From contig JAJDWR010000036.1 of the NCBI GenBank assembly GCA_022825505.1, positions 6,034-70,033 of the forward strand: DNA of 64,000 nucleotides, written 5' to 3'. This stretch comes from Gammaproteobacteria bacterium (lineage in GTDB: Bacteria > Pseudomonadota > Gammaproteobacteria > Steroidobacterales > Rariloculaceae). Under the pieces are notes generated by a model. The model was given only the letters and a program-made list of their open reading frames with translations. It was not told where the DNA came from and searched no databases. Shown here in pieces: positions 2-16,941 of this stretch. Position 1 is the stretch's first letter; every line of letters begins with the position of its first letter. The position numbers and the translations under genes are program-made.

Positions 2-2104
2 TATGACCTGCCCACCGGCCGCGATGCCGGGGTCGAAGACACCGCACTGGAAGACGCCCTGCAGGTCATCGGCCGGCATGAAGGCATCGAATTCAGGATT
101 CCGGTGCGCTCCCGATCTTCCGATTCGGTGATCGGCCTCACGGACGTTCTAGATTCTTCAGGCGTCCGTGCCCGGCGCGTGCGATTCAGGGCCGAGGGGA
201 GCTGGTGGCGCGGCGACAGCAACGCACTGCTGGCATTTCGCTCCGGAGACGGGCAGCCCGTCGCGCTGTTGCCGGGCATGTTCGGGCGCTACCGCGAAGT
301 CGATCCCGTCAGCAAGCGCAGCGTCCGGCTGACGGCGGCTCGGGCCGAAGCGCTGCAGCAGGAAGCCTGGATGTTCTATCGGCCATTGCCGCCGGAGAAT
401 GTGAAACCGGCGGACCTGCTGCGAATCGCCCTGCATGGAGCGGGCGCGGACCTGGTGCGGCTGGTGATCGCCGGGCTGCCGGGCGGCCTCATCAAACTGC
501 TGCCGGCGCTCGCGCTCGGGTTCGTTGCCAATCACATCGCGGCCGGCGGAAGCGCCGGAGCGCTCTATGCAGTGGCCGTGACGCTGGCGGCGTTCGGCCT
601 GCTCGGCGCGCTGCTGCACCTGGCGCAGAGTTCGGCGATGATGCGGCTGGAGGGGCGCTCGGCCTCAAGGGTTGAAGCGGCCTTCTGGGACCGCCTCATG
701 CGACTTCCGTCAAGCATTCTGCACCGCCATCCGGCCGGCGACCTGGCCATGTCGGGAATGACGTTTCAAAATCTGCGCGATGGCCTGCAGGGCGTCATCG
801 CCGACAGTGTGCTTTCGCTCGTTTTTCTGCTGCCAGTCTTTGCCGTCATCTTTTTCTACGATGCCGCTCTCGGGACCGTCACCCTGGTCTTCAGCCTGAT
901 TTCGCTGCTGGTCACCGTCGCTATCGGGTTGCGCCAGATTGCACCCCATGGGCGGATGATCGGCGCGATTCGCCGCGTAGCGGGCCGCCTGTTCCAGATT
1001 GTGGGCGGTATCGCCAAGCTGCGCGTGGAAAACGCGGAAGGGTCGGCGTTCGCCATGTGGGCCGAGGATTACAGGGAGCAGAAACGCGCAGAGCTCCAAC
1101 TGGGCGTGCTCGAGGGGCATGCGAGGGCCTTTGGCGCCGCGCTGCCCCTGGTTGCCGGCGGCGTGCTGCTGCTCGCAGTGGCAACGGTGAGCGACCGGAA
1201 TGTCCCAGTGGGCGACTTTCTGGTCATTTACACCGTCTTCATCGCCTTTCAGTACGCCATTGCCCGGCTAGGCGAGTCCTTCGGCACCACTGCCTCCATG
1301 CTGCCGGCGTTTGACCAGATGCGCCCGCTGCTGGCCACGATTCCCGAGTCAGCGGCCGGGGGAGAGCCGGTAGGCCGTCTGGGCGGCGACGTGCTGTTCG
1401 ACCGCATTTCCTTCCGCTACGATCCCGACGGCCCGCTGATACTGGACGATGTCACGATTCGCGCCCGTCCCGGCGAGTTCATCGCCATTGCCGGGGAGTC
1501 CGGCGCCGGCAAGAGCACGCTGTTCCGCCTTGCGCTTGGCATCGACACGCCAGCGGCCGGCGCAGTGTATTACGACGGCCGCGACCTGAGGCACCTGAAC
1601 CTGAAGCAGTTGCGCCGCAAGATCGGTGCGGTTCCGCAGTCGGTGCGGCTGCATCCCCAGGATATCTGGGACAACATCGTCGCGCACCACGAAGGGCCGA
1701 CCACCGAAGAAGTGTGGCAGACGGCCCGCGCCGCCGGAATCGAAAAGGAAATCAAGGCGATGCCCATGGGGATGATGACCATGGTCGGGGCCAGCGGGGC
1801 GGTCCTCTCGGGGGGCGAGAGTCAGCGCGTCACCATCGCCCGTTCGCTGCTCGGCAGCCCGCGCGTCATGCTGCTGGACGAGGCAACCAACTGGCTCGAC
1901 AACGAAAACCAGGCCGAGGTCATGCAGAACCTGGCGCTGCTCACCTCCACCCGAATCGTGATCGCCCACCGCCTGTCCACGCTGGAGCAGGCTGACCGCA
2001 TCTACGTGCTGCAGGCCGGGAGGGTCGTGCAAAAGGGCTCATTCGAGGATCTGATGGAGGTTGACGGGGTATTCAGAAGGTTGGTCAAGAGGCAGATCGC
2101 CTGA
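2..2104 (+). CDS. Bacteriocin/RiPP-type ABC exporter, fused permease + ATPase (NHLM-system-like); 5' end at or just beyond the window edge
   Basis: The frame is open from nt 2; the first in-window start is GTG 104. A hydrophobic TMD half is followed by Walker A GESGAGKST, signature LSGGESQR, Walker B VMLLDEAT and H-loop IAHR. No C39 peptidase motif in the part present. Directly upstream of the YcaO/NHLP genes. Confidence 0.85.
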   Translation, partial: YDLPTGRDAGVEDTALEDALQVIGRHEGIEFRIPVRSRSSDSVIGLTDVLDSSGVRARRVRFRAEGSWWRGDSNALLAFRSGDGQPVALLPGMFGRYREVDPVSKRSVRLTAARAEALQQEAWMFYRPLPPENVKPADLLRIALHGAGADLVRLVIAGLPGGLIKLLPALALGFVANHIAAGGSAGALYAVAVTLAAFGLLGALLHLAQSSAMMRLEGRSASRVEAAFWDRLMRLPSSILHRHPAGDLAMSGMTFQNLRDGLQGVIADSVLSLVFLLPVFAVIFFYDAALGTVTLVFSLISLLVTVAIGLRQIAPHGRMIGAIRRVAGRLFQIVGGIAKLRVENAEGSAFAMWAEDYREQKRAELQLGVLEGHARAFGAALPLVAGGVLLLAVATVSDRNVPVGDFLVIYTVFIAFQYAIARLGESFGTTASMLPAFDQMRPLLATIPESAAGGEPVGRLGGDVLFDRISFRYDPDGPLILDDVTIRARPGEFIAIAGESGAGKSTLFRLALGIDTPAAGAVYYDGRDLRHLNLKQLRRKIGAVPQSVRLHPQDIWDNIVAHHEGPTTEEVWQTARAAGIEKEIKAMPMGMMTMVGASGAVLSGGESQRVTIARSLLGSPRVMLLDEATNWLDNENQAEVMQNLALLTSTRIVIAHRLSTLEQADRIYVLQAGRVVQKGSFEDLMEVDGVFRRLVKRQIA

Positions 2105-2135: not shown

Positions 2136-3515
2136 ATGAAGGAACCAGCCAACGCAACGGAACGTCTTCTCCTCAAGGCTGCGAATGACAGCGAGTACCG
2201 CGCGCGCCTGCTCGCGCATCCAAGGGATGCGATAGAACAGGAATTCGGCGTGGCGCTGGCCGAAGGCCATGAAATTCACGTGCACGAAGAAACCGATGGT
2301 GCGACGCACCTGGTGCTGCCGCCGAAGAGCCGGTTCAGCGAGGAAGAACGCGAGGCAGCGAGGACAGGCGCGTCCTCGCTCGAGTTCCTGAAGAAGACGA
2401 TGTACGACCCGGCCCCTCCAATGCGCCCACCTGCCGGGGAAGCGACGGCTGCCGGAAAAGCAGCGGGTGACAGGGAAGCGGTGACTGAGGGGGAAGCGGC
2501 GGTGGCCGGCAGAGCCTCGGCTGCGGGGGTGGGTTCCCTTGACAACGAGGCGTTGGGGAAGGCCGGCAGGGAGAGCATCCGCCGCGGACTCGCGTTCCTG
2601 GGATCCACAATCGACGAGAACGGGGCCTGGCACTGCATCCGGTTCAACATCGCCGACCCGGACATACCGCGGCATTTCGAGCGGCCACCGTTCGTTTCGG
2701 CATTCTGCGTTCTGGCCCTGGAAAGCAGCAACGAGCCGCGCGCCAGGGCCATCTGCGCCGCCACGCGGGGGTACCTTGCCGACACCATGGAATACCCGGG
2801 ATTCTGGCGCTACTACCGCCATCTCCCCCAGGATCTCGACAGTACGGCGCTCTGTTCGCTGGTCATCGGGAATCACCCCTGGATTCTGCTGGAAAGGAAC
2901 GTTCCCCGGATGCTGGCGAATCGCGACGAGAAGGGTTGCTTCATGACATGGGTGCTGGCGGAACACGAACCCAATGTCGTGGCGACCTTCCGCATTGAAG
3001 CCGACCCGGTAGTCAATGCGAACGTCATCGCGTACCTGGGCGACGGGCCCGATACCCGGGATGCCCAGCGATGGCTGGAAGCCATGATTGTCGAAGACCG
3101 GCTAGAGGGCGCCTCCAAGTGGTATCCGGACAAGGCCGCGATCTACTACGCAACCACCCGGGCCATGATCCGCGCGCGGCCCGCCCTGGAAGCACTTCGA
3201 CCGATACTCGCGGATCGCATTCTCGGCCTGCGTGACCCGAGGGGAGAATTCGGCGACATCCTTCAGACTGCTCAGGCGATGTCGGCGCTCTACAATATCG
3301 GCAGCCTTGGACGCATCGACGCGAGACACGGAGTGGAGAGGTTCATCGGTTCGCAACGTGACGACGGCAGCTGGCCGGAGTTGCTCGCGTTCGGCGACCA
3401 ATCGCTGAATTGGGGCACAGTGGGGCAGATCGGACATGGCTCCGAGGCCGTGACGACTGCGTTTTGTATCGAAGCCCTGGAGCGTCTCGTCGAAACCCTG
3501 GAAGATGCAGGCTGA
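2136..3515 (+). CDS. Two-domain protein: NHLP-leader-like N-terminal domain, Ala/Gly/Pro/Glu-rich linker, prenyltransferase/squalene-cyclase-repeat (alpha/alpha toroid) C-terminal domain
   Basis: ATG 2136 (the track start at 2061 overlaps the ABC gene). aa 1-78 align ungapped and in register with aa 1-78 of the 7107..7358 precursor (25/78 identical by hand count). The C-terminal ~330 aa carries repeats such as GLAFLGSTIDENGAWHC, FVSAFCVLALE, RFIGSQRDDGSWPE and TTAFCIEALE, typical of PFTB/SHC-type repeats. Confidence 0.7.
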   Translation: MKEPANATERLLLKAANDSEYRARLLAHPRDAIEQEFGVALAEGHEIHVHEETDGATHLVLPPKSRFSEEEREAARTGASSLEFLKKTMYDPAPPMRPPAGEATAAGKAAGDREAVTEGEAAVAGRASAAGVGSLDNEALGKAGRESIRRGLAFLGSTIDENGAWHCIRFNIADPDIPRHFERPPFVSAFCVLALESSNEPRARAICAATRGYLADTMEYPGFWRYYRHLPQDLDSTALCSLVIGNHPWILLERNVPRMLANRDEKGCFMTWVLAEHEPNVVATFRIEADPVVNANVIAYLGDGPDTRDAQRWLEAMIVEDRLEGASKWYPDKAAIYYATTRAMIRARPALEALRPILADRILGLRDPRGEFGDILQTAQAMSALYNIGSLGRIDARHGVERFIGSQRDDGSWPELLAFGDQSLNWGTVGQIGHGSEAVTTAFCIEALERLVETLEDAG

Positions 3516-5853
3516 TCCGGCTCGGAAGTCCCGGGTGAAGTTCCCCACGGACACGAACATCCGGCAGGGGATCCTGCTCAGGACGACTCCCGGGGACCAG
3601 GGCCTCGTCAGGCTGCCTGCGCTTGCTCCGCACCTGCAGTTTCGCACCATTGGCGAAGAGCGGACGCTGCTGGTATCGGAGTCCTTCAATACGCTGCTGC
3701 ACGGCAGGCTGTACCCCGATCTGCTGCCGCTGCTGGACGGCCGCCTCGCGCAGGAGAAGATTGCCGCCAGGCTTGCGGACACCCATGCCGCTGCCGATGT
3801 GCTTGCAGCCATCGTTTCGCTGACGGCCAAGGGCTACGTCGTCTCTGCCGAACATGGCATGGAGGCGGCCCGGGCGGCCTACTGGTCGTCACTGGGTGCG
3901 TCGCCGCGCTGGGTCGAACAGCGGCTCGTGGAATCGCGTGTGGCGGTTGAAGGGGACGGCGGACGGCTGGCCGGGCACCTTGAAGCGTCCGGCGCCCGGG
4001 TGGGAACCGACGATCCCGCGCTCACCGTCATCGTCTGCGAGGACTATCTCGAAGAAGAGTTCGTCGATGTCAATCGGCGGCAGATGGAGCTGGGCGCACC
4101 GTGGATGCTGGTGCGGCCCCGCGGAATCGAACCGCTGTTCGGCCCGGTCTTCCGCCCGCACGAACAAGGGCCCTGTTGGGCGTGCCTGGCCTACCGCCTG
4201 CGCAGCCACCGGGAAGTACACAATTTCCTGCGCAACCTTGGCGGCGAGGAGGCTGCCTTCAGGCCGTTTGCGGCGAATCCGACTGTGCTCGAAGCAGTCT
4301 ACGGGCTGACCGCGGCGGAGATCGCCAAGTGGCTGGTGCTGGACGAGACGGCCCCGATTCACGCACAGGCGATCACCATGAATGTCGGCACGTTCGCAAG
4401 TTCCCGGCACCCGGTGATGCGCCGGCCGCAGTGTCCGGCCTGCGGCGACGAAGCGTTGCATCGGCCGGACCGGCCGCCGGTCCCGCTGAACCTCAGGGCG
4501 AGCCCCAAGGCCCACCTGAACAGCGGCGGCGCACGCACGGTGGCGCCGGAAGTCACCCTGGCAAGGTACCGTCACCTGGTGAGTCCGGTCAGCGGAGTCG
4601 TGACCTGGCTCAGGCGCACGACCGACGAGACCGATTCCTGGCTGCACGTCTATTGGGCCGGAAGCAATCTCGGCATGAGAAGCCGGACCCTGGGTTCGCT
4701 GAGGCGCAGCCTGCGCAGCAAGAGCGCCGGCAAGGGCAGCACCCGGGAGCAGTCCGAGGTCAGCGCGCTCTGCGAGGCGGTGGAGCGCTATTCGGGCGCC
4801 CTGCATGGCGAGGAGATCCGTCTGCGCAGGCGATTCAGCGAATTCGCCGGCGGGGACGAAGCGATACACCCCAACGAGGTGCAGCTTTTCAGCGACCATC
4901 AGCTCGATAACGCAGCAGGCATCAATGCGAAAGGCCACCCTTACAATGTCGTCCCCCCGCGTCTTGACCTCGATGCCGAGATCGACTGGACACCGGTGTG
5001 GTCGCTGACCCGGGAGCGGCATCGCTACCTGCCCACGTCGATGCTCTACAGCATGGCGCCCGAACAGCGCGGCACCGCCGACCTGATCGCCGATTCCAAC
5101 GGCTGCGCCGCGGGCAATACGCTGGAAGAGGCCATCCTGCAGGGCTTTTACGAACTGGTGGAGCGCGATGCGTTCGGTATCTGGTGGTACAACCGGCTGC
5201 GGATGCCCGCGGTCGATCTGGCCGGCTTCGACGACGAGTACCTGGCATCGGCCGCCGACTACTACGCCCGCTGCGAGCGGGACGTATGGATGCTCGACGT
5301 GACCGCCGATATCGGCATCCCGACGTTCGTGGCGTTGTCACGCAGGCCGGACGGTGAAACCGAGGACATCATTTACGGCGCCGGCGCCCACGCCGACCCG
5401 CGTATCGCGGCACTGCGTGCGATCTGCGAACTGAACCAGTGCCTGACCTGGCTGCCGCGGCCCGGCGGCCGGGACGGCCGGCCGATGATCGACGACCCCC
5501 TGGCGCTCCAGTGGTGGAAAACCGCCCGACTCGCCGACTGCCGCTGGCTGGCACCTCCGGCGGATGCGCCCTTGCGCGATCCCTCGATTTATCCGGTAAC
5601 AGACTCGACGGACGCGCGTGACGACGTGGAGCATTGCCGCGCCCTTGTAGAAGCCAGGGGCATGGAGTTCCTGGTACTGGATCAGACCCGGCCCGACATC
5701 GGCATGCCCGTGGTGCGGGTCATCGTGCCGGGCATGCGCCACTTCTGGGCGCGGTTCGCGCCCGGGCGCCTCTACGACGTGCCGGTGAGCCTGGGCCGTC
5801 GCGAATGCCCCCTCGCCGAAGCCGAATTGAATCCGACTCCCGTCATCGCATGA
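3505..5853 (+). CDS. Fused TOMM cyclodehydratase: E1/ThiF-like (SagC-type) N-terminal domain + YcaO (SagD-type) domain
   Basis: Paired CxxC motifs (GPCWAC, QCPACG) in the N-terminal ~330 aa. YcaO motifs GKGSTREQSEVSALCEAVERYSG, NGCAAGNTLEEAILQGFYELVERDA and VVRVIVPGM. Pro-rich C-terminus LNPTPVIA. The ATG overlaps the upstream stop by 11 nt. Confidence 0.9.
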   Translation: MQADPARKSRVKFPTDTNIRQGILLRTTPGDQGLVRLPALAPHLQFRTIGEERTLLVSESFNTLLHGRLYPDLLPLLDGRLAQEKIAARLADTHAAADVLAAIVSLTAKGYVVSAEHGMEAARAAYWSSLGASPRWVEQRLVESRVAVEGDGGRLAGHLEASGARVGTDDPALTVIVCEDYLEEEFVDVNRRQMELGAPWMLVRPRGIEPLFGPVFRPHEQGPCWACLAYRLRSHREVHNFLRNLGGEEAAFRPFAANPTVLEAVYGLTAAEIAKWLVLDETAPIHAQAITMNVGTFASSRHPVMRRPQCPACGDEALHRPDRPPVPLNLRASPKAHLNSGGARTVAPEVTLARYRHLVSPVSGVVTWLRRTTDETDSWLHVYWAGSNLGMRSRTLGSLRRSLRSKSAGKGSTREQSEVSALCEAVERYSGALHGEEIRLRRRFSEFAGGDEAIHPNEVQLFSDHQLDNAAGINAKGHPYNVVPPRLDLDAEIDWTPVWSLTRERHRYLPTSMLYSMAPEQRGTADLIADSNGCAAGNTLEEAILQGFYELVERDAFGIWWYNRLRMPAVDLAGFDDEYLASAADYYARCERDVWMLDVTADIGIPTFVALSRRPDGETEDIIYGAGAHADPRIAALRAICELNQCLTWLPRPGGRDGRPMIDDPLALQWWKTARLADCRWLAPPADAPLRDPSIYPVTDSTDARDDVEHCRALVEARGMEFLVLDQTRPDIGMPVVRVIVPGMRHFWARFAPGRLYDVPVSLGRRECPLAEAELNPTPVIA

Positions 5854-5862
5854 GGAAGCGAC

Positions 5863-6981
5863 ATGGACATTGACCGGGCAGTGACGCTGACCGAGGACCG
5901 TCTCGCAGAGGAAGGCGGCACCATGGGTGACCTGCTTGGGCACTTTCGAAACAGGATTTCTCCGATTCTCGTCGGCAACTCGGAATGGGAACGCATACTC
6001 CAGTGCGCGGGCAGACTTCCGGGCACCATGGCCGCCCTTCCCTTCGGCTTTGAACTGCCGCTGCACGAGCCCCGGCCGGTGGCGGATTTCGGAGCGTCGC
6101 TGGCCAGCGGAACACGAACGGCGGCATTTTTCGAAGCGCGCGCGCGCACCGGCGAGGCCGATGAGACGGCCAGATCGATTACCCGTCTGTTCAGGGAAAT
6201 GGAAGCCGAACACTCGCCCCTGCGCGAGATCGTCGGCCGCAAGCTGATGCTTGAATATGACATCGGCTCGGCGCAGGACGGTGGGCGCTCCGACCCGGCG
6301 CTGTTCCTGCGGCCCGGCGAACGCCCGATCATCGGCGGCGGCGGCCAGTTGGGCGATGTCCGCACGGTAGTCGATGCGCTGGTTGACTGCGCAGGCTGGG
6401 AGCGCAACGACGCCGAGCGGAAGAACGTCGAACGGGCCTACCTGGCCCAGCCGGGCGATACGCGCCTGGATTCGTTCGGCGTCTTCCCGTCGCGCTCGCG
6501 GTCGATCCGCCTGGCGGTCATGGGCTTCCGGACGCAGCAGGAAGCGTGCGTCTATCTCGAAAACACGGGCTGGCCAGGCCGGATTTCGGCGGTCGACGCG
6601 GTGATTTCACGCTTCAGGGAACGCGCGAATATCGTCAGGACCGGAGTCAATATCGATGTGCGCAAAGAGGGTCTCGGACCGACGCTCGGCCTGACACTGA
6701 TCGTCAAGCAGCGGTATACGAAGGACTCGCGCTACTGGCTCGACGGCCTGACCGACTGGGATCCGTTCCTGGACGCGTTGGGCCACGAAGACCTGGTCGT
6801 TCCGGAGAAGCTTGAGGCGGTCGCCGGCTGGGTTTCGAATCCGACCGCCCTGTTTGCGAAGACCGGGCGCTTCGTACTGCTGCGCGGCATCCACCACATC
6901 AAACTGGTCATTTCAGGCAACCGGCTCAGCAAGGCCAAGGCTTACGTGTTCCTCGTGCTCTCCGGCGCGGTCTCCTCCTGA
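5863..6981 (+). CDS. Hypothetical protein of the RiPP operon (no motif recognised; possible five-fold beta-beta-alpha-alpha repeat)
   Basis: The ATG lies 10 nt after the YcaO stop, with AGGAAG upstream. Coding-like composition, same strand, tightly packed. No nitroreductase/SagB-like, radical-SAM or protease motif seen. Confidence 0.65.
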   Translation: MDIDRAVTLTEDRLAEEGGTMGDLLGHFRNRISPILVGNSEWERILQCAGRLPGTMAALPFGFELPLHEPRPVADFGASLASGTRTAAFFEARARTGEADETARSITRLFREMEAEHSPLREIVGRKLMLEYDIGSAQDGGRSDPALFLRPGERPIIGGGGQLGDVRTVVDALVDCAGWERNDAERKNVERAYLAQPGDTRLDSFGVFPSRSRSIRLAVMGFRTQQEACVYLENTGWPGRISAVDAVISRFRERANIVRTGVNIDVRKEGLGPTLGLTLIVKQRYTKDSRYWLDGLTDWDPFLDALGHEDLVVPEKLEAVAGWVSNPTALFAKTGRFVLLRGIHHIKLVISGNRLSKAKAYVFLVLSGAVSS

Positions 6982-7058: not shown

Positions 7059-7108
7059 GAATGCAGGCAGTTCTGCATTCTGGCCGGCTGTCGCCGGCTG
7101 CCGGTTTT
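7059..7108. terminator. Putative bidirectional terminator between the convergent RiPP operon and the precursor gene
   Basis: Perfect 8-bp hairpin GAATGCAG-N6-CTGCATTC (7059..7080). Then GCCGGC-TGTC-GCCGGC (7083..7098), followed on the + strand by a short T run (7105..7108). No long U-tract on the minus side. Confidence 0.35.
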
Positions 7109-7358
7109 ACCAGCAACAGCAGAGTCCGGCGGAGATCGCTTCGAGCTGCTCCTCGGTGATGTTGGGATCCGGCGGCAGCGCAAGATGGACCGTCTGCATG
7201 TCACTCTCGTGCACCTTGACCGTCATCGACTCGGGAATCGTGATGCCCAATTCCTCGCTGATGGTCGCCTTCGGATCGGAAAGTAGCGCCTGACGGAAAT
7301 CTTCATCCAGGGCCGACTTCTCAACGATCTGCTGTAACATTTCGTCGCCACTTCGCAT
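7107..7358 (-). CDS. NHLP (nitrile-hydratase-leader-peptide) family RiPP precursor; predicted core LCCCW
   Basis: 83 aa, with AGGAG 6 nt upstream of the ATG. Leader pattern DFRQALLSDPKATISEELGITIPESMTVKVHESDMQTVHLALPP. Double-glycine-type spacing in ITEEQLEAISAG (I -4, L -7, I -12). The protein ends ...AG-LCCCW-TAA. Adjacent to the YcaO cyclodehydratase and ABC exporter. Confidence 0.85.
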   Translation of the reverse strand: MRSGDEMLQQIVEKSALDEDFRQALLSDPKATISEELGITIPESMTVKVHESDMQTVHLALPPDPNITEEQLEAISAGLCCCW

Positions 7359-7622: not shown

Positions 7623-8498
7623 ATGTTTCCTGACCGAGAAATTGCGAAAGAGTTGCCTGTTGGCCAGGGTTCGCCAAGACATTCTTGCGTCCCCCGGAAT
7701 GGTGGTTCGCCGGGTACCCTCGTAATGGCGCTTGCAAGCTTCTGTCTTGTAGGCGGACCGGCCCTTGCCCAAAACGAAACGCCGGAAGAAAAAGGCCTGA
7801 GGCTGGCCCTTGAGGCCAGCGCCAGCAACGAGGGCTTCGGGGATTTCACCGCCGGGTTGACGATGGTGCTACGCGACCGGCAGGGACGCGAGAGCGTCCG
7901 CCAGATGCGCTTCAAGGTGCTTGAGGTGCCGGGGGACGGGGACAAGAGCCTGTTCGTATTCGATCAACCGCGGGACGTGCAGGGAACCGCTCTCCTGACC
8001 CACGCTCACGCCAACACCCAGGACGACCAGTGGCTGTATCTGCCGGCCCTGGAAAGGGTCAAGCGCATCAGTGCTTCGACGCGGTCGGGATCGTTCATGG
8101 GCAGCGAGTTTTCCTATGAAGACATGAGCGCCCCCGAGGTGGAGGAATACACGTACAGATACCTTCGCGACGAACCCTGCGGCGAACTCACCTGTACGGT
8201 GACCGAGCAGTTTCCTCTGGATGAGAAAACCGGATACAGCCGCAAGGTCATCTGGCAGGATACCGGCGATCTGCGAACGTGGAAGATGGAGATGTACGAC
8301 CGGCGTGACTCGCACCTGAAGACGCTGACTTTTGCCGATTACGGACTCTATCTCGACCGGTTCTGGCGGGCAGGCGAACAGACCATGGTGAACCACCTGA
8401 CCGGCGCGAGCACGGTGCTTCACTGGACCGACTTTGCGTTCGGTACAGGACTCGAAGACGGCGAGTTCACCCAGACGGCACTGCGGCGCGTGCGCTGA
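7623..8498 (+). CDS. Outer-membrane lipoprotein-sorting (LolA-like) family protein
   Basis: The pattern GDKSLFVFDQPRDVQGTALLTH...DDQWLYLPALERVKRISASTRSGSFMGSEFSYEDMS matches the LolA_like family as I recall it. The true start may be ATG 7725 (MALASFCLVGGPALAQ signal). Confidence 0.7.
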   Translation: MFPDREIAKELPVGQGSPRHSCVPRNGGSPGTLVMALASFCLVGGPALAQNETPEEKGLRLALEASASNEGFGDFTAGLTMVLRDRQGRESVRQMRFKVLEVPGDGDKSLFVFDQPRDVQGTALLTHAHANTQDDQWLYLPALERVKRISASTRSGSFMGSEFSYEDMSAPEVEEYTYRYLRDEPCGELTCTVTEQFPLDEKTGYSRKVIWQDTGDLRTWKMEMYDRRDSHLKTLTFADYGLYLDRFWRAGEQTMVNHLTGASTVLHWTDFAFGTGLEDGEFTQTALRRVR

Positions 8499-9829: not shown

Positions 9830-11104
9830 GTGATACAGCCAGGCGCTAAATCGTTGCGGAGGATCGCGGTAATCGGCCGGGGAACGGCAGGCTCCCTGGC
9901 CGCCGCCAGCGTGACGCGCATGCATCCGGACAGCGGCCACGAACTGCACCACATCTACGACTCGCGCATCCCCGTCATCGGCGTGGGCGAAGGCAGTTGG
10001 CCGAGCCTGGTCCAGGAATTGCAGAAACTGACGAACTTGTCCCAGGAAACCGTTCAGCAGCGACTGAACGGAACCCGCAAGTACGGCGTTGCCTTCGAGG
10101 GATGGGGCCGGCGCAAGCGAAACTTTACCCACTACTTCACCCCGCAGCAGGTCTCCTACGCCTACCACCTCTCCGCCGACGTGATGGCGGACCTTCTGCA
10201 CGAGAGCACGCGCGCGCGCCACATCGACGCGAACGTGACCAATATCACCCGGGTGAAGGGCGGCGCACAGGTGGAATTCGACGGCCGGGCGCCGCAACGG
10301 TACGACCTGGTCTTCGATGCCCGCGGGTTTCCCAGGAAACTGAACCCCGACCGGCACATCGAGATTTCCTTCATCCCCACCAATACGGCCGTTATCCGCC
10401 GCTGCCCGGCCATCGTTCGGCACGAGCAGGACGGGCCGGTGGTGAAACACACCTACACACGTGCGGTTGCGCGCCCTCACGGCTGGATATTTGTCATCCC
10501 GCTGACCGTGCACACCTCCTACGGGTACATTTTCAACCGCGATGTTTCAAACCTCGCCGAAGTCGAGTCGGACTTCGACGAGTTCCTCGAGGCCGACGGC
10601 GTGCCGGAATTCGAGCAGCGCGCCGTCATTCCCTTCCCCAACTTCGTCCACCGCAAAATTTACGATGGCGTGGTGGCCCGCATCGGCAACGCGGCCGCCT
10701 TCATGGAGCCCCTGGAAGCCACGGCCATCGTATCGGCCCAGATACAGATCGGGATGGTGCTCCAGATGCGCCTGAACCGTGCGATCGAGCACCTCGAGCG
10801 CGACGCACCGGTGGTCAATCGGTTCCTGATCAGCAACATGCTCTGCTACGGCCTGTTCGTCGGCTGGCACTACTCCCGCGGCTCCAACTACGACACGGAG
10901 TTCTGGCGTTTCGCCCGGCATGACGTCTGGCCGAGGCACCGTACCGCCGCCGCCCCCGAGGCGGTGGATTGCACCGCGCTGAGCAAGTTCGATGAAATGA
11001 TCGACCTGCTGAACCAGCCGGTCATCGACAAGGAGGACTGGGACCGGATGTGCGCAGTCCCGCTCACCAGCTACGCGCAGATGTCCCAGGGGCTGGGAAT
11101 TTAG
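9830..11104 (+). CDS. Tryptophan-halogenase-family FAD-dependent protein
   Basis: GTG start with GGAGGA upstream. N-terminal Rossmann motif IAVIGRGTAGSLAA, then VIGVGEGSWPSL. HGWIFVIPL resembles the WxWxIP motif, with the second W replaced by F. Confidence 0.6.
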   Translation: MIQPGAKSLRRIAVIGRGTAGSLAAASVTRMHPDSGHELHHIYDSRIPVIGVGEGSWPSLVQELQKLTNLSQETVQQRLNGTRKYGVAFEGWGRRKRNFTHYFTPQQVSYAYHLSADVMADLLHESTRARHIDANVTNITRVKGGAQVEFDGRAPQRYDLVFDARGFPRKLNPDRHIEISFIPTNTAVIRRCPAIVRHEQDGPVVKHTYTRAVARPHGWIFVIPLTVHTSYGYIFNRDVSNLAEVESDFDEFLEADGVPEFEQRAVIPFPNFVHRKIYDGVVARIGNAAAFMEPLEATAIVSAQIQIGMVLQMRLNRAIEHLERDAPVVNRFLISNMLCYGLFVGWHYSRGSNYDTEFWRFARHDVWPRHRTAAAPEAVDCTALSKFDEMIDLLNQPVIDKEDWDRMCAVPLTSYAQMSQGLGI

Positions 11105-11114
11105 CGCCTGGCCT

Positions 11115-13571
11115 TTAGAGCGAGTCGATATCAGTAGCAGCTTGACCGGCGGTCTCGTGCACGGCCGTTGTCAGGGATTCGAAATCGGCGAAGCCGCACG
11201 ACCTGGCAATTGCCGCCCTTACACCGGGCTTGGCCGCCTCGACGTCCAGAGACCCGTCGGCCACAAGGCAGCGAATCCCTTGCAGATTGCGCCACAAGGC
11301 TGCTGCCTGGGCCAGGCGCTCGGCGGTTTCGCCGTCCATCAGGCCGCCCTCACCGGCGGTGCGGAACGTGGTTCCGGCATCGAGCGTCTCCAGGCCGTCA
11401 TCGCCGTCGGCAAGGCGCAGGCGTAACTGGCGGGCGGCACGTTCGACCGCCCCGAAACCGCCGCGTTCGGGTTCGAGCGGCGAGTTGGCCCTCTCGGTGG
11501 GCTCGATCACGCTTCCTTCGGGCCCGCCTGGGCTGCCGTCAGGCTCGCTGCCGCCGGCGACGGGCTCGCTGTAGCTGTTGTCTGGCTCGCCGATGGAACC
11601 CGCGCCACTGCCCTCCCCGGCCAGCGCTTCGCGCCGGGCCGTTTCGAATTGCGTTTCGATCATGGCGTCGCCGAACGAGAAGATGCACCTGGCCCGGGTC
11701 AGGTCCCCGGGTTCGCTCGGCACGCCAGGGCCGCCGAACCCGGCCCCGAACTCGGCGAGCGAAACGGCAGTGACCGTACTCTCCCCGCGCGACGTCGGAG
11801 CAAACAGCAGATTGTCCTGCGTGAGCGCGTGCAGCGCATCGCGAATGCGCCGGCACAGTGCCTCGTAGTGCGCCGCCGGGCCGCCCTCGTGGACCAGCAG
11901 CATCCGCAGTTCGAGGCCGGGTGCGGCCTCGCCGCTTGCCGCATCGCCCAGCACGACCGCGGCAAGGCCGCCCGTGGCGCCGAGGCTGCCAAAGTCCTCT
12001 TCGATCGACCCGAGCACGGCGCCCACGGACGCTTCGGCGATGTTGGACAGCGCCGTCCCGGCCTCGATGGGCGTCAGGTTTCCGCGCAGGGTATGCATCC
12101 CGATCTGGAACGCCTTGTCGTTGGTCCAGTTCCTGGCGGCATCCACGGTTTCGCGCACGTCCTGGACCGGGTAATCGTCGATACGCGCCCGCATTTCGGC
12201 GACGTCCAGTTCCCGAGTCCAGTAAATCCGGGTGAGTCCGCGGCGCGCGATGGACTCGACTTCCGCGGTCGGGCCGAAACCCTTGGGCAGGTCGAGGTCG
12301 GTGAATTCCCTGTTCCTGAGGTTGTCCAGCAGTTCCGGAGACCGGTCGATCCAGGCGGCCAGCCGCGGAGCCGACGCGAAGATCTCTTCAATCTCCTCGA
12401 ACGCGTCGGGGCGCTCTGCGGTGGCCGGACTGTCGTAGGCGCTCCAGTCGTCGATATCGGGATAGAAATGCTTGCGCCAGCGGTCCACGCGCGGGTCCAT
12501 CTTCTCGAACCAGCGGCGCGGCCTTACCGCCAGGCCGGCCATCTCGACATAGGTCCCCGGCAGTTGCGGCGCGGCATCGGGGCCGCAGTGCTGCAACAGC
12601 GGATAGCGCCGCCCCGGCGCGATGTGGTGGTCCGGGTGGCGCTGCATGTTGAAGAAGAACCAGTTGCTCAACTTGTACGCCGCGCTCCAGGAATGCCAGG
12701 GCTGGACTCGCTCGTACCGGCCGTTCGGCAGCCGGATGCGCCGCAGCCCGTAGTGCTGGACGTAGTTGATGAGCTTCATCGACATGATGATGCAGGTGCA
12801 CAGAATGACGTAGCCCAGCACGGCCCATGGGCCGCCCATCCAGTACATCAGCACATACCAGGCGGCGGTTACGCCCACGTATCGCCAGAACGGATTCGTG
12901 TAATGCCAGACCGGCAGGCGGCGGCGAGTCAGCCGCTGCCGTTCGAACACCCAGGCGCCGGTGAGGTTGCTCTTGATTTCCCGGGGGAGGTAACGCCAGA
13001 AACTCACCCCCTTGGGTGCAGAACCGGGATCTCCCGGGGTACCTACAAGGGAATGGTGGACAAAGATATGTTCCGACGCATAGGTCGGATACGAGACCGA
13101 AGCCAGGATGACCTCGCCAAGCCGGCGTTCCCACACCGCGCGCCGATGAATCAGTTCATGGCCGACAATGAACGAGACCTGGCCCACAGTGGTCAGCACG
13201 AACGCCATCAGGATGATTTCGAACAGCGCCAGGTGATCCGAAAGAAACATCTGCCAGAGGCAGAACACAAACGTGACCGGCCAGAGGATGCCCCACGCCC
13301 AGCATGACAGCTTGTACCAGGACAACTGCCGGTCGATCGTGCGCCGCGGGTCCATGTTTCCCTCGTCGGCGCCGGACATGGCATCGAAAACGTCCGGAAT
13401 CATGAAATAGAGGTAGGGGGCGGCGATCCACCAGCTTCCCTGCACCGCGGCGATGGCCATGAACGGGAACACGCCCAGCGAAAGAAAATACGGAAGCGAG
13501 TTGGCGAATGACGGCAGGACAGGCACGTCCGGCACCGCCGAATCGGGACTCATGCTGGGTTGCTCAGCCAT
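11115..13571 (-). CDS. AlkB-type membrane di-iron alkane hydroxylase fused to a ~430-aa C-terminal GlnE-like (degenerate nucleotidyltransferase) region
   Basis: All four His boxes are present: GHELIHRR, SEHIFVHHSLVG, LINYVQHYGL, NMQRHPDHHIAPGRRY. The C-terminal part (FQIGMHTLRGNLTPIEAGTALSNIAEASVGAVL ... LAAVVLGDAASGEAAPGLELRMLLVHEG) resembles the GlnE adenylyltransferase core, but the G-S/DxD positions are substituted. Confidence 0.75.
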   Translation of the reverse strand: MAEQPSMSPDSAVPDVPVLPSFANSLPYFLSLGVFPFMAIAAVQGSWWIAAPYLYFMIPDVFDAMSGADEGNMDPRRTIDRQLSWYKLSCWAWGILWPVTFVFCLWQMFLSDHLALFEIILMAFVLTTVGQVSFIVGHELIHRRAVWERRLGEVILASVSYPTYASEHIFVHHSLVGTPGDPGSAPKGVSFWRYLPREIKSNLTGAWVFERQRLTRRRLPVWHYTNPFWRYVGVTAAWYVLMYWMGGPWAVLGYVILCTCIIMSMKLINYVQHYGLRRIRLPNGRYERVQPWHSWSAAYKLSNWFFFNMQRHPDHHIAPGRRYPLLQHCGPDAAPQLPGTYVEMAGLAVRPRRWFEKMDPRVDRWRKHFYPDIDDWSAYDSPATAERPDAFEEIEEIFASAPRLAAWIDRSPELLDNLRNREFTDLDLPKGFGPTAEVESIARRGLTRIYWTRELDVAEMRARIDDYPVQDVRETVDAARNWTNDKAFQIGMHTLRGNLTPIEAGTALSNIAEASVGAVLGSIEEDFGSLGATGGLAAVVLGDAASGEAAPGLELRMLLVHEGGPAAHYEALCRRIRDALHALTQDNLLFAPTSRGESTVTAVSLAEFGAGFGGPGVPSEPGDLTRARCIFSFGDAMIETQFETARREALAGEGSGAGSIGEPDNSYSEPVAGGSEPDGSPGGPEGSVIEPTERANSPLEPERGGFGAVERAARQLRLRLADGDDGLETLDAGTTFRTAGEGGLMDGETAERLAQAAALWRNLQGIRCLVADGSLDVEAAKPGVRAAIARSCGFADFESLTTAVHETAGQAATDIDSL

Positions 13572-13710: not shown

Positions 13711-16700
13711 TCAGGCTTCTGCGCGAGAACGCTCCCTGACTTGCAGCACAATACCGTAGACGACCGGCAAGACCAGAAGGCATAGCAGCAGCGTAGTGAC
13801 CATGCCGCCGATCATCGGCGCGGCGATTCGCTGCATGACGTCCGATCCCGCACCGCTGGCCAGCATGATGGGCAGCAGTCCCACGATGGTCGACACCGCC
13901 GTCATGGACACCGCCCGCACCCGGCGTGAGGTGCCCAGATGGACCGCTTCGCTTATTTCCCCGGCCGTCAGGGAGACGACGCTCGCTCCGGCGTGCGACC
14001 AGGGCACCGGCGCATCGCCATGCGAAACGACGTCGTGCCCCCCCTCGGGCGAAAGTGCCTCGTGCTTTTGCCGGCGCCGTTCCGCGACCGCCTTTTCGAT
14101 AAAGGTCAGCACGAGCACGCCCGTTTCCACGGCAACACCGGCAAGGGCGATGAACCCGACGGCTACAGCCACGGAGATATTGAATCCCAGCCAGTGCACG
14201 GCCCAGAAGCCGCCTACCAGCGCGAACGGTACCGAGAGCATCACGGTCAACGGTGCGGCGACGTTGCGGAAGTTGAGATACAGCAGCAGGAACATCAGGA
14301 ACAGGGTCAGCGGTATGACGACGCGAAGCCTGGCGGCCGCCCGCTCCAGGTATTCGTACTGGCCCGACCACGTGAGGGCATAGCCGGGTGGAATCGTGAG
14401 CTGCTCTGCCAGCAACGCCCGTGCCCGGGTCACGTAGCCGCCCACATCCGAGGTGGAAATGTCCACGGACACCCATGCATTCGGACGGGCGCCTTCGCTC
14501 TTGATCACCGGCGGCCCGCGATTCAATTCGATGTTCGCGAGCTGGCCGAGCGGGATCTGCGCGCCGGACGGCGTGGGAATCAGCACGCGCTGCAATTGCA
14601 GCGGGTCGTCCCGCAACTCCCGCGGATAGCGAATGTTGACCGGGTAACGCTCCAGGCCCTCCACGGTTTCGGTCACCTGGACGCCGCCGATGGCGGACAT
14701 GATGACGTCCTGGATGTCTCGAACCGTCAGGCCGTAGCGGGCGGCTTCCGGCCGCCGGATATCGAAGTCCAGAAAGTAACCGCCCGCCGCCCGGTCGCCG
14801 AACGCCGACAGGGTATCGGGGAGGGAAGTCATGATCTGCTCGGCATCCAGAGCCAGGCGCTGAAGCTCTTCCAGGTCCGGCCCGCTGATCTTGATCCCCA
14901 CCGGGGTCCTGATGCCCGTGGAAAGCATGTCGATCCGGGTCCTGATGGGCATCGTCCAGGTATTCGCAAGGCCCGGGAAGCGGATGGCGGCGTCCATCTC
15001 CCGCATGAGGTCCGATGTGGATTTGCGCGGATCCGGCCATTCTCCCTTCGGTTTCAGCTGCACCACCGTCTCGATCATCGACAGGGGCGCCGGATCCGTC
15101 GCCGTTTCGGCGCGGCCGATCTTGCCGAACACCGATTCCACTTCCGGGAACGTGGTCAGAATCCTGTCCGTCTGCTGCAGCAATTCCTCCGCCTTGGTGA
15201 TGGAAACGCCCGGGAACGTCGTCGGCATGTAGAGAATGTCGCCTTCGTCCAGCGGCGGCATGAACTCGGTCCCGAGCCGGGAAAGCGGAAACCAGACGGT
15301 TGCCAGTACCCCCGCTGCAACGACCAGGGTTACAACACGCCAGCGGAGAAAGCCGCGCAGGACCGGGGCGTGAACCGCGCGCAGCAAACGGGTGATCGGA
15401 TTGGCCGACTCCGGAAGGATACGGCCGCGCACGAGCAACCCGATCAGCAGCGGCACGACGGTCACCGCCAGCAGCGCCGCGCCCACCATGGAATAACTGC
15501 TCGTGAACGCCAGGGGCTTGAAGAGCCGGCCCTCCTGCGCTTCGAGTGTGAAGATTGCGAAGTAGGAAACGACGATGACCAGCAGGGAGAAGAACAGCGC
15601 CGGGCCCACCTCCCTGGCCGACTCGACGACGGTTCGCCAGCGCTCTCCTGAAGTCAGCGGTGCGGATTTTTCGGCGGCGGCGCGCGCCAGCCGCTTGTGC
15701 GCGTTCTCGATGAGCACGATGGGACCGTCCACCATGGCGCCGATGGCGATGGCAATGCCTCCCAGGGACATGATGTTCGCGTTGATGCCCTGGATTCGCA
15801 TCAGGATGAAGGCCAGCAGAATGCCGATCGGCAATGTGAGTACCACCACAAGCGCCGACCGCAGGTGCAGGAGAAACACCGCGCAGACCAGCGTCACCAG
15901 CGCAATCTCGATCAGCAGCGTGTTGGAGAGATTGTCGACAGCGTTCTCGATCAGCGCCCCGCGGTCGTAGACGGGCACGACCTCCACCCCTGCCGGCAAT
16001 CCGGGCTTCAGCTCCTCGAGCCGTGCCCGGACCCGTTCGATGGTTTCGAGCGCATTTTCCCCGTAACGCATCACGACCACGCCGCCCGCCACCTCGCCTT
16101 CGCCGTTGAGTTCGGCCACGCCCCTGCGCAATTCCGGTCCGGTCTGCACCTGCGCGATGTCGCGGACCCGGATCGGGGTGCCCTGCTCGTCCACACTGAC
16201 GGCGACCTGTTCGATATCCTCGATGGACTGGATGTACCCCAGTCCCCGCACCATGTACTCGGTCTCGGACATTTCCACGAGACGGCCGCCCACGTCGCCG
16301 TTGGATCGCATGATGGCCTGCCGGACCGTGGAGATGGGAATGTTGTAGGCAAGCAGTGCGTTGGGATCCACCACCACCTGGTACTGCTTCACGTAACCGC
16401 CGATGGACGCCACCTCGGCGACGCCCGGCACGGTCTGCAACGGGTAACGCAGGTACCAGTCCTGGATGCTGCGCAACTCCGAGAGATCGAGTTGGCCGCT
16501 ACGGTCCACCAGCGCGTACTCGTAGATCCAACCCACGCCGGTCGCGTCGGGGCCCAGGGTCGGCGTGACCCCCTCCGGCAAGCGGCCGCTGACGTAGTTG
16601 AGGTACTCCAGTACGCGCGACCGGGCCCAGTACATGTCGGTGCCGTCGTCGAAGATGATGTAGACGAAGGAAAACCCGAAGAACGAGAAACCGCGCACGA

Positions 16701-16941
16701 CGTTTGCGTACGGCACCGCCAGCATGGCGGTGGTCAGCGGATAGGTGACCTGGTCTTCCACCACCTGGGGGGCCTGCCCCGGGTACTCGGTGAACACGAT
16801 CACCTGGACGTCCGAGAGATCGGGAATCGCATCCAGCGGCGTGTCGCGCAGCGCCAGCACGCCCGCGACGACGAGCACCACCGTGAGAACCGCGACCAGC
16901 AGCCGGTTCCCGGCCGAGGCGGCGATGAGCCGTTCAATCAT
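13711..16941 (-). CDS. cusA: Heavy-metal efflux RND pump, CusA/CzcA family
   Basis: MIERLIAASAGNRLLV...DAIPDLSDVQVIVFTEYPGQAPQVVEDQVTYPL is a canonical CusA N-terminus. 1076 aa with a 12-TM RND layout. It has a His-containing insertion before the last TM pair. Confidence 0.9.
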   Translation of the reverse strand: MIERLIAASAGNRLLVAVLTVVLVVAGVLALRDTPLDAIPDLSDVQVIVFTEYPGQAPQVVEDQVTYPLTTAMLAVPYANVVRGFSFFGFSFVYIIFDDGTDMYWARSRVLEYLNYVSGRLPEGVTPTLGPDATGVGWIYEYALVDRSGQLDLSELRSIQDWYLRYPLQTVPGVAEVASIGGYVKQYQVVVDPNALLAYNIPISTVRQAIMRSNGDVGGRLVEMSETEYMVRGLGYIQSIEDIEQVAVSVDEQGTPIRVRDIAQVQTGPELRRGVAELNGEGEVAGGVVVMRYGENALETIERVRARLEELKPGLPAGVEVVPVYDRGALIENAVDNLSNTLLIEIALVTLVCAVFLLHLRSALVVVLTLPIGILLAFILMRIQGINANIMSLGGIAIAIGAMVDGPIVLIENAHKRLARAAAEKSAPLTSGERWRTVVESAREVGPALFFSLLVIVVSYFAIFTLEAQEGRLFKPLAFTSSYSMVGAALLAVTVVPLLIGLLVRGRILPESANPITRLLRAVHAPVLRGFLRWRVVTLVVAAGVLATVWFPLSRLGTEFMPPLDEGDILYMPTTFPGVSITKAEELLQQTDRILTTFPEVESVFGKIGRAETATDPAPLSMIETVVQLKPKGEWPDPRKSTSDLMREMDAAIRFPGLANTWTMPIRTRIDMLSTGIRTPVGIKISGPDLEELQRLALDAEQIMTSLPDTLSAFGDRAAGGYFLDFDIRRPEAARYGLTVRDIQDVIMSAIGGVQVTETVEGLERYPVNIRYPRELRDDPLQLQRVLIPTPSGAQIPLGQLANIELNRGPPVIKSEGARPNAWVSVDISTSDVGGYVTRARALLAEQLTIPPGYALTWSGQYEYLERAAARLRVVIPLTLFLMFLLLYLNFRNVAAPLTVMLSVPFALVGGFWAVHWLGFNISVAVAVGFIALAGVAVETGVLVLTFIEKAVAERRRQKHEALSPEGGHDVVSHGDAPVPWSHAGASVVSLTAGEISEAVHLGTSRRVRAVSMTAVSTIVGLLPIMLASGAGSDVMQRIAAPMIGGMVTTLLLCLLVLPVVYGIVLQVRERSRAEA

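Follow-up and report, generated by a model that had tools for sequence, protein, structure and literature searches.

How does an enzyme of a peptide-tailoring pathway come to carry, at its own N-terminus, a domain that resembles the leader of a peptide precursor, and what could such a domain be for? The question is raised by an open reading frame (ORF) at 2136..3515 (+) of a 64,000-nt stretch of gammaproteobacterial DNA (contig JAJDWR010000036.1; the whole stretch is called the window below), which encodes a protein of 459 amino acids (aa) with the N-terminus MKEPANATERLL. The locus is the published cluster of the sponge-derived RiPP proteusin (srp; RiPPs are peptides made by the ribosome and modified after translation), recognizable by a precursor of the nitrile hydratase leader peptide (NHLP) family with the core LCCCW, a YcaO protein and a Trp halogenase (PMC10858898, PMC10286304, bioRxiv 10.1101/2023.06.09.544420). 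The precursor, SrpE, is an 83-aa ORF at 7107..7358 (-), MRSGDEMLQQIVEK...AISAG-LCCCW; its 252-bp gene and its ITEEQL variant match the description given in the last of these sources.

The evidence reviewed below supports a genuine NHLP-family leader-like module, with a flexible linker between it and an alpha/alpha toroid that looks catalytic. The fusion protein can be divided as follows (AF2, AlphaFold2; dN/dS, ratio of nonsynonymous to synonymous substitution rates):

2136..2369 (+): putative pseudo-leader domain of the NHLP family, residues 1-78 (homology, AF2 secondary structure, invariant residues, dN/dS)
2370..2426 (+): ultra-conserved segment, residues 79-97, A[AS]SLEFLKKTMYDPAPPxRP (conservation, lowest dN/dS of the protein)
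2427..2555 (+): variable linker rich in Ala, Gly and Glu, residues ~98-140 (tandem repeat, length variation, dN/dS)
2556..3515 (+): monodomain alpha/alpha toroid resembling class II terpene cyclases, residues ~141-459 (AF2, Foldseek, profile against PDB)
2832..2846 (+): D233-L-D235-S-T237, counterpart of the general-acid motif (DxDD / DxDTT) of class II cyclases (profile alignment, invariance)

The leader-like domain and its history

A sequence-only reading of this DNA had aligned residues 1-78 of the enzyme with residues 1-78 of the precursor by eye and without a gap. The similarity is significant. BLASTP joins residues 9-81 of both proteins with 24/73 identities and 0 gaps (E=1e-15), tblastn gives 32% identity between the two 1-78 segments, and in a profile-profile comparison the N-terminal domain of the fusion protein (N-domain; 20 sequences) matches SrpE (20 sequences) gap-free over columns 1-78/1-78 (hhalign, 99%, E=4.3e-18). 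The same region of Pfam NHase_alpha is matched by the N-domain (E=9e-6) and by the precursor, and the model TIGR03793 (leader_NHLP) recognizes residues 6-73 of the fusion protein over positions 4-72 of 77 (E=4.1e-12) with 45.8 bits, which is below the curated cutoff of 50.9 bits that the SrpE precursor passes with 74.4. Gly78, taken by the same reading for the cleavage-site Gly of the precursor, is indeed the last leader residue there; the core LCCCW agrees with published SrpE (PMC10858898). Since SrpE also aligns gap-free over residues 1-78 with the unrelated precursor of locus L086 (L-numbers designate loci with relatives), alignment in register from Met1 is a family trait.

Like the NHLP leaders SrpE, MprE7 and OspA, the N-domain starts at Met1, comprises 78 residues and displays three N-terminal helices, a beta-hairpin, LPP and then a helix. 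Its AF2 secondary structure (helices at 7-17, 19-27 and 29-37, strands at 48-53 and 56-60; confidence score pLDDT ~80 for residues 10-40) agrees, in the three helices and the hairpin, with the description of MprE7 obtained by nuclear magnetic resonance (PMC10858898). Residues typical of the fold are kept (A15, D18, R22, L25), and so is the hairpin V49-H50 ... T57-H58-x-V60-L-P-P, in which V49, H50, T57, H58 and V60 are invariant in 77 sequences. The hairpin also carries H48 next to H50 (HxH) with H58 on the adjacent strand, and there is a further His at 45, all being at least 90% conserved (window 2277-2312). The layout of H48/H50/H58 is that of a classical three-His metal site; SrpE has only H50 and H58, and several other leaders associated with toroids likewise read (I/V)HVHEE.

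Unlike the known NHLP leaders, the N-domain is part of a 459-aa enzyme rather than a free peptide of ~80-100 aa, is followed by no core, scores below the TIGR03793 cutoff, evolves faster than SrpE and has a degenerate LxxxxL motif (F/L67 ... R72) with Ala at -4. Position 72 (-7, the second Leu of LxxxxL) is Arg in 77/77 N-domains and L/M in 64/64 SrpE sequences, and position 75 (the hydrophobic -4) is Ala in 77/77 of the former and I/V in 64/64 of the latter, while position 67 (-12), which is I in 64/64 SrpE, can be F, L or Y. The LxxxxL recognition motif (-12 to -7) is thus absent from the N-domain. Where SrpE has its cleavage site A77-G78 (64/64), the N-domain has R/K76, Thr or Ala at 77 and an invariant G78 (77/77); instead of the double-glycine-type site and core of a small stand-alone precursor, one finds this G78 followed by a 19-aa segment, the linker and a 320-aa enzyme. 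The Leu residues at -12 and -7 are required for strand addition to the RiPP recognition element (RRE) of YcaO proteins, for SrpI binding and for binding to LahT-type C39 proteases (PMC10858898, PMC12455567), and the specificity of the RRE in the MprE7/MprC pair also involves a reading of the alpha1 face of the leader (PMC12455567). At the five alpha1 positions in question (MprE7 Q7, S10, Q11, A14, W17) the N-domain has D/N, D/E, a variable R/F/L/I/V, S and G, and SrpE has E, Q/K, Q, E and A.

By homology, then, the N-domain is an NHLP leader, but four of the five marks by which its sequence could be judged a functional one are lacking: it scores below the family cutoff, has no LxxxxL motif and no cleavage site followed by a core, and is not part of a small protein. 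We infer that it is a pseudo-leader, in which the residues of the NHLP fold have been kept and the hydrophobic residues at -7 and -4 replaced, and to which no core belongs. With R72 and A75 in these places and no core, such a pseudo-leader should escape cleavage and should not compete for the RRE, the brominase or the protease; it is probably uncleavable, would stay on the enzyme for life and would not be bound by the RRE in the canonical manner. Genome-mining tools may miscall the N-domain, as well as short N-domain gene calls, as an extra precursor peptide.

Where does this domain come from? The sequence-only reading had a precursor gene duplicated and fused to an enzyme. An NHLP leader-like module was indeed fused, but it is no recent copy, nor specifically one of the cluster's own precursor: the N-domain is only 31-33% identical to SrpE (53-57 bits) as against 40-49% (61-67 bits) to the NHLP precursors of the toroid-associated clusters L086, L090 and L095, to which SrpE is itself 39-46% identical (60-79 bits). 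Across 60 loci the identity between the N-domain and its cognate SrpE is 28-40%, and mean pairwise identity amounts to 67% among N-domains and 85% among SrpE leaders. To judge by these comparisons, the N-domain belongs, as an old and diverged member, to the NHLP clade of the toroid-associated clusters, and the fusion took place before the srp family diversified.

The fusion is old, translated from Met1 and held by purifying selection. The ATG at 2136 and the N-terminus MK[EK]P are kept in three other loci, among which the DNA 5' of the start codon differs in sequence and length (spacers of 4, 32 and 174 nt). There is no conserved internal Met; at position 89, M is found in 42 sequences and L in 35. 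Calculated by the Nei-Gojobori method for the window gene against two homologues, dN/dS is 0.20-0.28 for codons 1-78, 0.03-0.15 for codons 79-97, 0.50-0.94 for codons 98-140 and 0.20-0.24 for the toroid. Since residues 48-97, which form the N-domain region's C-terminal half, are its best-conserved part, the N-domain appears to have been re-specified rather than left to decay, and most likely binds something specific.

An annotation artefact, either because the true start lies 3' of the leader-like region, as the sequence-only reading had itself named among its possible failures, or because the N-domain is a separate small gene, is extremely improbable. The ATG at 2136 has no obvious Shine-Dalgarno sequence in front of it, and short N-domain-only proteins are present in the protein database, but the start codon is conserved while the upstream DNA is not, codons 1-97 are constrained in the same frame as the toroid, and the best 80 of 309 genome loci read through in one frame, most of them from residue 1. 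The search for N-domain-only proteins yielded 15 short sequences (P0121-P0135, 84-173 aa). P0121 (L093:6001-6318) was considered as a natural unfused N-domain and ruled out: on L093, the sole contig examined, this call is a frameshift artefact of long-read sequence, the YcaO gene there being split in three. The remaining short proteins also stop inside or just before the linker.

Between N-domain and toroid the sequence-only reading had seen a single linker of ~55 aa. This description fits residues ~98-140, which are variable, but not residues 79-97, which sit where a true precursor carries its core and are the most constrained stretch of the whole fusion protein. Within this segment A79, S81, F84, L85, T88, D91, P92, A93, P94 and R97 are invariant, and it contains no Cys and no Trp, i.e. 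none of the residues that are modified in the pathway. The linker proper holds, in the window protein, 4 copies of an 18-bp tandem repeat (6 aa, Gly/Glu/Ala-rich) at 2431-2502. The closest relatives, of 453, 459 and 465 aa, differ by the count of these 6-aa units, and in most homologues the linker is ~24 aa shorter; such variation in length via 18-bp repeats fits the expectation for a tether. In another lineage (P0081) an independent GATVGGL repeat is found at the equivalent place of the linker.

Recurrence of the architecture in other genomes, and co-occurrence with YcaO genes, had been proposed as checks, and both were found. A search with the fusion protein returned 1038 protein clusters at 90% identity, of which the best 120 are 397-465 aa long (119 of them 431-465 aa) and 68-91% identical at 92-100% coverage, many with a precomputed NHase_alpha match. 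In species-representative genomes 309 loci contain a relative. The best 80 hold near full-length fusions of 66-90% identity and stem from sponge-associated metagenome-assembled genomes (MAGs) of Gamma-/Alphaproteobacteria, Acidobacteriota, Opitutales, Binatia, Nitrospirales, Gemmatimonadota, Nitrospinota and Thermodesulfobacteriota. The closest, L005 in a Candidatus Rariloculaceae MAG, has a fusion protein of 90% identity, and its YcaO, its SrpE and its NHLP-type ATP-binding cassette (ABC) exporter, called ABC2 here, are 97-98% identical to those of the window. Among the best 80 of the 309 loci, cluster proteins are 66-98% identical over at least 8 bacterial phyla (SrpE leaders 85% on average), and this high identity across phyla points to extensive horizontal transfer among sponge symbionts together with an unusually strong constraint on the leader.

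The gene neighbourhood was counted in 83 fusion-bearing loci. Immediately upstream of the fusion gene lies ABC2 in 59/83, sometimes only 4 nt away. Downstream one finds a desaturase-like gene and then YcaO (43/83), YcaO directly, as in the window (26/83), or P372, an uncharacterized protein of 372 aa (12/83), and YcaO is present within 10 kb in 73/83. In five srp-type loci (L008, L009, L010 (Opitutales), L055 and L079), which contain ABC2, the fusion, P372 and a precursor with the core LCCCW and four of which have a halogenase, YcaO is absent within 10 kb; in six further loci YcaO is distant, only 54-66% identical and located beside a desaturase-like gene.

The toroid, P372 and the core tryptophan

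What kind of enzyme carries the domain? Modelled by AF2 from a diverse alignment of 47 toroid sequences (pLDDT 94.9, predicted template-modelling score pTM 0.93), the toroid retrieves nothing but class II terpene cyclases among the top 40 matches of a Foldseek search against the PDB. The best match is the cyclase domain of AsDMS, a drimenol synthase of Aquimarina (E=2e-12, TM 0.74-0.77); next come the monodomain cyclases MstE, 8paj/8pak and 6ij1 (TM ~0.7), and then drimenyl diphosphate synthase and squalene-hopene cyclase. A profile search of the PDB gives 9mhs_B (E=6.5e-31) and squalene-hopene cyclase (E=4e-26). The sequence-only reading was therefore right to call the toroid catalytic-looking, but its wording in terms of prenyltransferase repeats has to be given up: the beta subunits of protein prenyltransferases (RabGGTase/GGTase3) appear only at ranks 41-49 with TM 0.30-0.46, and a Pfam search of the toroid found no prenyltransferase repeat, only a weak SQHop_cyclase_C match.

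In the profile alignment the toroid motif 'DlDdT' falls on the 'DLDTT' of AsDMS; in the structure annotated as the D333N mutant this place reads 'DLNTT', with N at the second Asp. D233, D235 and S236 are invariant in the 46 fusion proteins, and the 47 divergent stand-alone relatives have the consensus DLDDT with both Asp invariant or nearly so. Having both the fold and the general-acid motif of class II cyclases, the toroid can be described from model and alignment as class II terpene-cyclase-like and, as D233-L-D235-S-T237 is intact, as probably catalytic. With MstE and AsDMS it shares the alpha/alpha-toroid fold (TM 0.70-0.77) and the aligned catalytic Asp motif; it differs from them in sequence (16-20% identity), in the additional N-terminal NHLP domain and in its location within a RiPP cluster that has no recognizable prenyltransferase or terpene synthase. 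Neither a prenyl donor nor an acceptor could be recognized at the sequence level.

Most relatives of the toroid do not carry a leader. An exhaustive search with the toroid alone returned 824 representatives, mostly stand-alone proteins of 300-350 aa without NHLP domain, a few being fused to a sulfotransferase or a P450. The nearer of the stand-alone toroids occur in other clusters with NHLP precursors and peptidase-containing ABC transporters (PCAT), directly beside a P372 homologue. In L086 a P372-like gene (5220-6263; 24% identity to P372, E=6e-20) is followed by the toroid gene with a 4-nt overlap, and in L090 the toroid gene comes first and the P372-like gene (11002-12093; 29% identity, E=4e-31) second, again with a 4-nt overlap. 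A P372-family match lies beside the toroid on 14 of 80 metagenome contigs and NHLP precursors are present on 12 of the 80, and PCAT/ABC genes were seen in 14 of the 85 loci scanned around toroids. Many distant toroids from soil (~29% identity) lie on mostly short contigs from which P372, NHLP and ABC genes are all absent, so that the association with RiPPs is limited to the nearer toroid subfamily.

P372 itself has no match in Pfam (E<=10), in NCBIfam, in a phmmer search of the PDB or with two profiles against the PDB, and its homologues are annotated as 'hypothetical protein' only. Invariant in 23 divergent members are P53, E64, L67, D133, P145, R211, R216, L232, K347, K359 and Y361. P372 may be a new RiPP tailoring enzyme, and it is no more than a guess that it plays a prenyltransferase-like role; its conserved E/D/R/R/K/K/Y residues may be similar to those of an ABBA prenyltransferase.

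Trp is present in every precursor core recovered beside toroid/P372 pairs (L086, L090, L095-L097, L111, L115, L118, L140, L153-L157, L165 and the window, 7107-7358). These cores are 5-24 aa long, and in many of them Trp stands at or close to the C-terminal end: LCCCW; FTSVGGPIW, FTTGNNPLW and YSFNEPW; Y/FGMMWG, GDIWSEARPG and EDVWTPWRGP; TAWGEGFSDV, LCWAEPTSGINIP, TAWGECSSDAAF, GLAWGECTADTVGGI and SWHAADVEEDERATARQWWDAPPG. Counting one core per cluster type and assuming a Trp frequency of 1.5%, we calculate a chance of ~1e-6 that all would contain it. The toroid/P372 pair thus looks like a conserved tailoring module aimed at the core Trp, and these sequences make that residue its likely chemical target. 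There is a precedent for the isoprenoid modification of Trp-ending NHLP cores in the PalX/PalQ system, in which the conserved C-terminal Trp of an NHLP precursor is prenylated (PMC10853753). PalQ, however, has a ComQ-like class I isoprenoid-synthase fold and is related neither to the toroid nor to P372.

Two of these loci may also show how the fusion arose. The toroid gene of L090 has a precursor gene 163 nt upstream of it, whereas in L118 the precursor ORF appears to overlap the toroid start, the coordinates being stop-to-stop ORF bounds; this gene order is a plausible pre-fusion state. The third NHLP gene of L090, directly upstream of the toroid, was considered as an unfused N-domain and rejected: with its GG site and the core YSFNEPW it has the make-up of an ordinary precursor.

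Taken to its limit, the argument would make toroid and P372 an unrecognized two-enzyme RiPP module for the Trp of NHLP precursors; in one plausible version P372 would prenylate Trp and the toroid cyclize the product by protonation. The cryptic srp product, and with it a larger group of NHLP peptides with Trp in the core, would then be peptide-terpenoid hybrids, and the srp fusion, formed from an upstream precursor gene and the cyclase gene, a natural leader-in-cis enzyme. As a whole we regard this scheme as rather unlikely. The presence in the srp cluster of a class II cyclase-like enzyme with an intact acid motif, together with its obligate partner P372, suggests chemistry beyond thiazolines and bromination.

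Possible roles of the tethered domain

Why should the toroid of the srp cluster carry a leader when its relatives do not? Our tentative preference, to which we give distinctly less than an even chance, is that the tethered pseudo-leader acts as a cis-acting leader surrogate for the toroid/P372 module. In other clusters, a stand-alone toroid and a P372 homologue would serve NHLP precursors in trans. In an ancestor of srp, an upstream precursor gene would have been fused in frame to the toroid gene, and the tethered leader would occupy or organize the NHLP-docking site of the module, in cis or within a complex, this site being the one that the stand-alone relatives would use for the leader of their substrate. 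The module would in this way be held in a leader-bound, assembled or activated state, and the SrpE leader would be left free for YcaO, brominase and protease, three enzymes that must all work on a core of 5 residues. What leads to this proposal are the stand-alone toroid/P372 pairs, the pre-fusion-like gene order and the grouping of the N-domain with toroid-associated leaders. The poor activity of SrpC alone (PMC10286304) is compatible with missing partners.

Several points weigh against the proposal. It has to assume that an NHLP leader is bound by the toroid or by P372. The full-length AF2 model, built with 46 close homologues, has a pLDDT of 41 and displays no interface, only the helices of the N-domain being moderately confident. 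An enzyme able to act without a leader would be of most use on a core already freed of its own, yet PCAT transporters as a rule couple leader removal to export, and a secretion signal is missing from the fusion protein. The pairwise identities among N-domains hardly correlate with those among SrpE leaders (r=0.13, 60 loci), so that there is no sign of co-evolution, although no other partner is pointed to either. Finally, the most consistent neighbour of the fusion gene is ABC2 (59/83), and a tether to the exporter fits this equally well.

Mechanisms other than those discussed here keep a modest share of the probability. The sequence-only reading had looked to the cyclodehydratase: the tethered NHLP domain would bind the RRE of the SrpC YcaO dimer, and either recruit the cyclase-like enzyme or bring about an allosteric activation. 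YcaO does directly follow the fusion gene in the window and in about a quarter of the loci, often with an overlap that suggests translational coupling, the dimer offers two RRE sites, RREs are known to bind NHLP leaders (PMC12455567), and SrpC is poorly active on its own (PMC10286304). Such docking needs the alpha1 face and both Leu of LxxxxL (PMC12455567), however, while R72 and A75 are fixed in 77/77 N-domains, the alpha1 specificity positions differ from those of SrpE, one of them varying freely, and YcaO is the direct downstream neighbour in 26/83 only, with five loci having none within 10 kb. Docking on the RRE is disfavoured by these findings, and we consider it unlikely.

The exporter offers another anchoring point. 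The pseudo-leader could fix the enzyme to the NHLP export machinery, for instance to the ~300-aa N-terminal region of ABC2, and so couple the last tailoring step to cleavage and export while the real leader occupies the C39 domain of the partner subunit. Besides the position of ABC2 as immediate upstream neighbour (59/83, at times 4 nt away), this would agree with the extra N-terminal region without Pfam match that ABC2 has in other loci, and a permanent tether would indeed need an uncleavable leader. That region would have to bind leaders, though, C39 and C39-like domains recognize exactly those hydrophobic positions which the pseudo-leader has lost, and stand-alone toroids also occur in PCAT/ABC2 clusters without such a tether. 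We hold this to be quite unlikely.

It has also to be asked whether the NHLP domain of the enzyme pairs with the SrpE leader itself, capturing the substrate without an RRE in the manner of the tandem repeats of nitrile hydratase alpha. The N-domain aligns to two stretches of that protein (e.g., 57-107 and 128-177 of 1ire_A), and the beta-hairpin (V49, H50 ... H58, L/V, LPP) is the best-conserved element in N-domain and SrpE alike. Opposed to this are the behaviour of MprE7, which is a concentration-independent monomer in small-angle X-ray scattering up to 523 uM (PMC10858898), and the lack of correlated divergence between N-domain and SrpE (r=0.13). Leader-leader pairing is therefore doubtful, with a distinctly low probability. 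Very unlikely, in spite of the invariant G78 and the highly conserved segment in the 'core' position, is that the protein is itself precursor or cargo, its NHLP domain being a true leader for the polypeptide that follows (borosin-like) or being cleaved at G78: Arg at -7, Ala at -4 and Thr at -2 do not fit the hydrophobic -7/-4 and AG site of SrpE (PMC10858898), Cys and Trp are both missing from segment 79-97, and what lies downstream is a folded enzyme of 320 residues whose active-site motif is intact.

If the pseudo-leader is a surrogate or a docking module, nature would have found its own answer to a problem that RiPP engineers meet by fusing leader and enzyme, and there would be a new way of organizing several leader-dependent enzymes around a very short core. 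In engineered leader-enzyme fusions (leader-LctM; the leader-LynD heterocyclase), a cognate leader with an intact binding motif activates the enzyme towards leaderless cores. The srp protein resembles them in that the leader is covalently tethered by a flexible linker; those fusions are man-made, whereas this one is natural and ancient and, as its sequence indicates, has its canonical binding motif rewritten. Borosins (OphMA) likewise are natural single polypeptides made of a RiPP enzyme and a precursor-derived element, and the NHLP helical bundle is structurally similar to C-terminal domains of the OphMA family (PMC10858898). In borosins, however, a C-terminal core is modified by the enzyme domain, whereas the element is N-terminal here, consists of a leader only and is devoid of the residues that the pathway modifies, so that no core substrate shares the polypeptide. 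Enzymes with a fused RRE (PqqD-like) also carry an accessory domain, presumably for recognition in a RiPP pathway, but in their case it is the leader receptor that is fused, and here it is the ligand side. None of these closest precedents is a natural, core-less leader fused to a tailoring enzyme.

The srp cluster around the fusion gene

The other genes of the cluster, with the evidence for each, are:

104..2104 (+): NHLP-type export ABC transporter without peptidase domain, ABC2 (TIGR03797, E=2e-200)
3505..5853 (+): SrpC-type fused E1-like/YcaO cyclodehydratase with an N-terminal winged-helix RRE, residues 41-112 (YcaO E=7e-98; TIGR03882)
5863..6981 (+): P372, uncharacterized 372-aa protein (accompanies the toroid family as a conserved partner, both within srp and in other NHLP clusters)
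7107..7358 (-): SrpE precursor, NHLP leader (1-78) and core LCCCW (homology; published SrpE core, PMC10858898, PMC10286304)
7623-8498 (+): LolA-like protein, putative envelope/export accessory (family match; present in 22 loci)
8498-9733 (+): DUF1302-like protein, putative envelope/export accessory (family match; present in 18 loci)
9830..11104 (+): SrpI-type flavin-dependent tryptophan halogenase (Trp_halogenase E=1.4e-42)
11115..13571 (-): membrane fatty-acid-desaturase-like protein with a GlnE-like region, 818 aa (FA_desaturase E=4e-30; weak GlnE)

The YcaO gene overlaps the fusion gene by 11 nt. The core LCCCW was found in 62/64 precursors, i.e. in nearly all loci from which SrpE was recovered, and homologues of the SrpI-type halogenase (67-94% identity) occur in 54 loci. 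SrpC forms three thiazolines and SrpI carries out a leader-dependent reaction that puts bromine on C6 of the C-terminal Trp (PMC10858898, PMC10286304). On its own, SrpC shows poor activity and is difficult to purify (PMC10286304), and the reported difficulty of its reconstitution may reflect missing partners. No azoline dehydrogenase dependent on flavin mononucleotide (FMN) is visible in the srp cluster; the desaturase-like protein might therefore oxidize thiazolines or perform another oxidation.

Few natural-product loci of sponge microbiomes are as widespread and as highly transcribed as the srp cluster. In the srp/proteusin literature, as covered here without the founding paper (Nguyen et al., JACS 2021), only three of ~10 conserved genes are discussed (SrpE, SrpC and SrpI), and we found no mention of srpA, srpB, srpD, srpF, srpG or srpH, nor of this gene or of an NHLP-enzyme fusion. 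Thus, while the cluster has already been published, the architecture of the fusion protein is not described in that literature.

As to the exporter, ABC2 has ~981 aa in other loci (L001:6881-9826, L003:1178-4123) as compared with the 686 positions of the TIGR03797 model, which leaves an extra N-terminal region of ~300 aa. This region has no Pfam match and is a candidate for a domain binding the leader or pseudo-leader. In the window, ABC2 is only a 666-aa ORF from position 104, near the window edge. A C39-peptidase ABC transporter is located further upstream in other loci.

On its far side the cluster, which specifies a Cys-rich peptide, is adjoined by a heavy-metal efflux pump of the CusA/CzcA family of resistance-nodulation-division (RND) transporters at 13711..16941 (-) (TIGR00914, 1211 bits), with its likely membrane-fusion and outer-membrane partners at 16934-19571 (-). 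The pump was considered as a member of the srp cluster and dropped, as it was not found beside other srp clusters and is probably a chance neighbour. The sole tRNA gene in the window, tRNA-Ser (GGA), lies at 55266-55356 (+).

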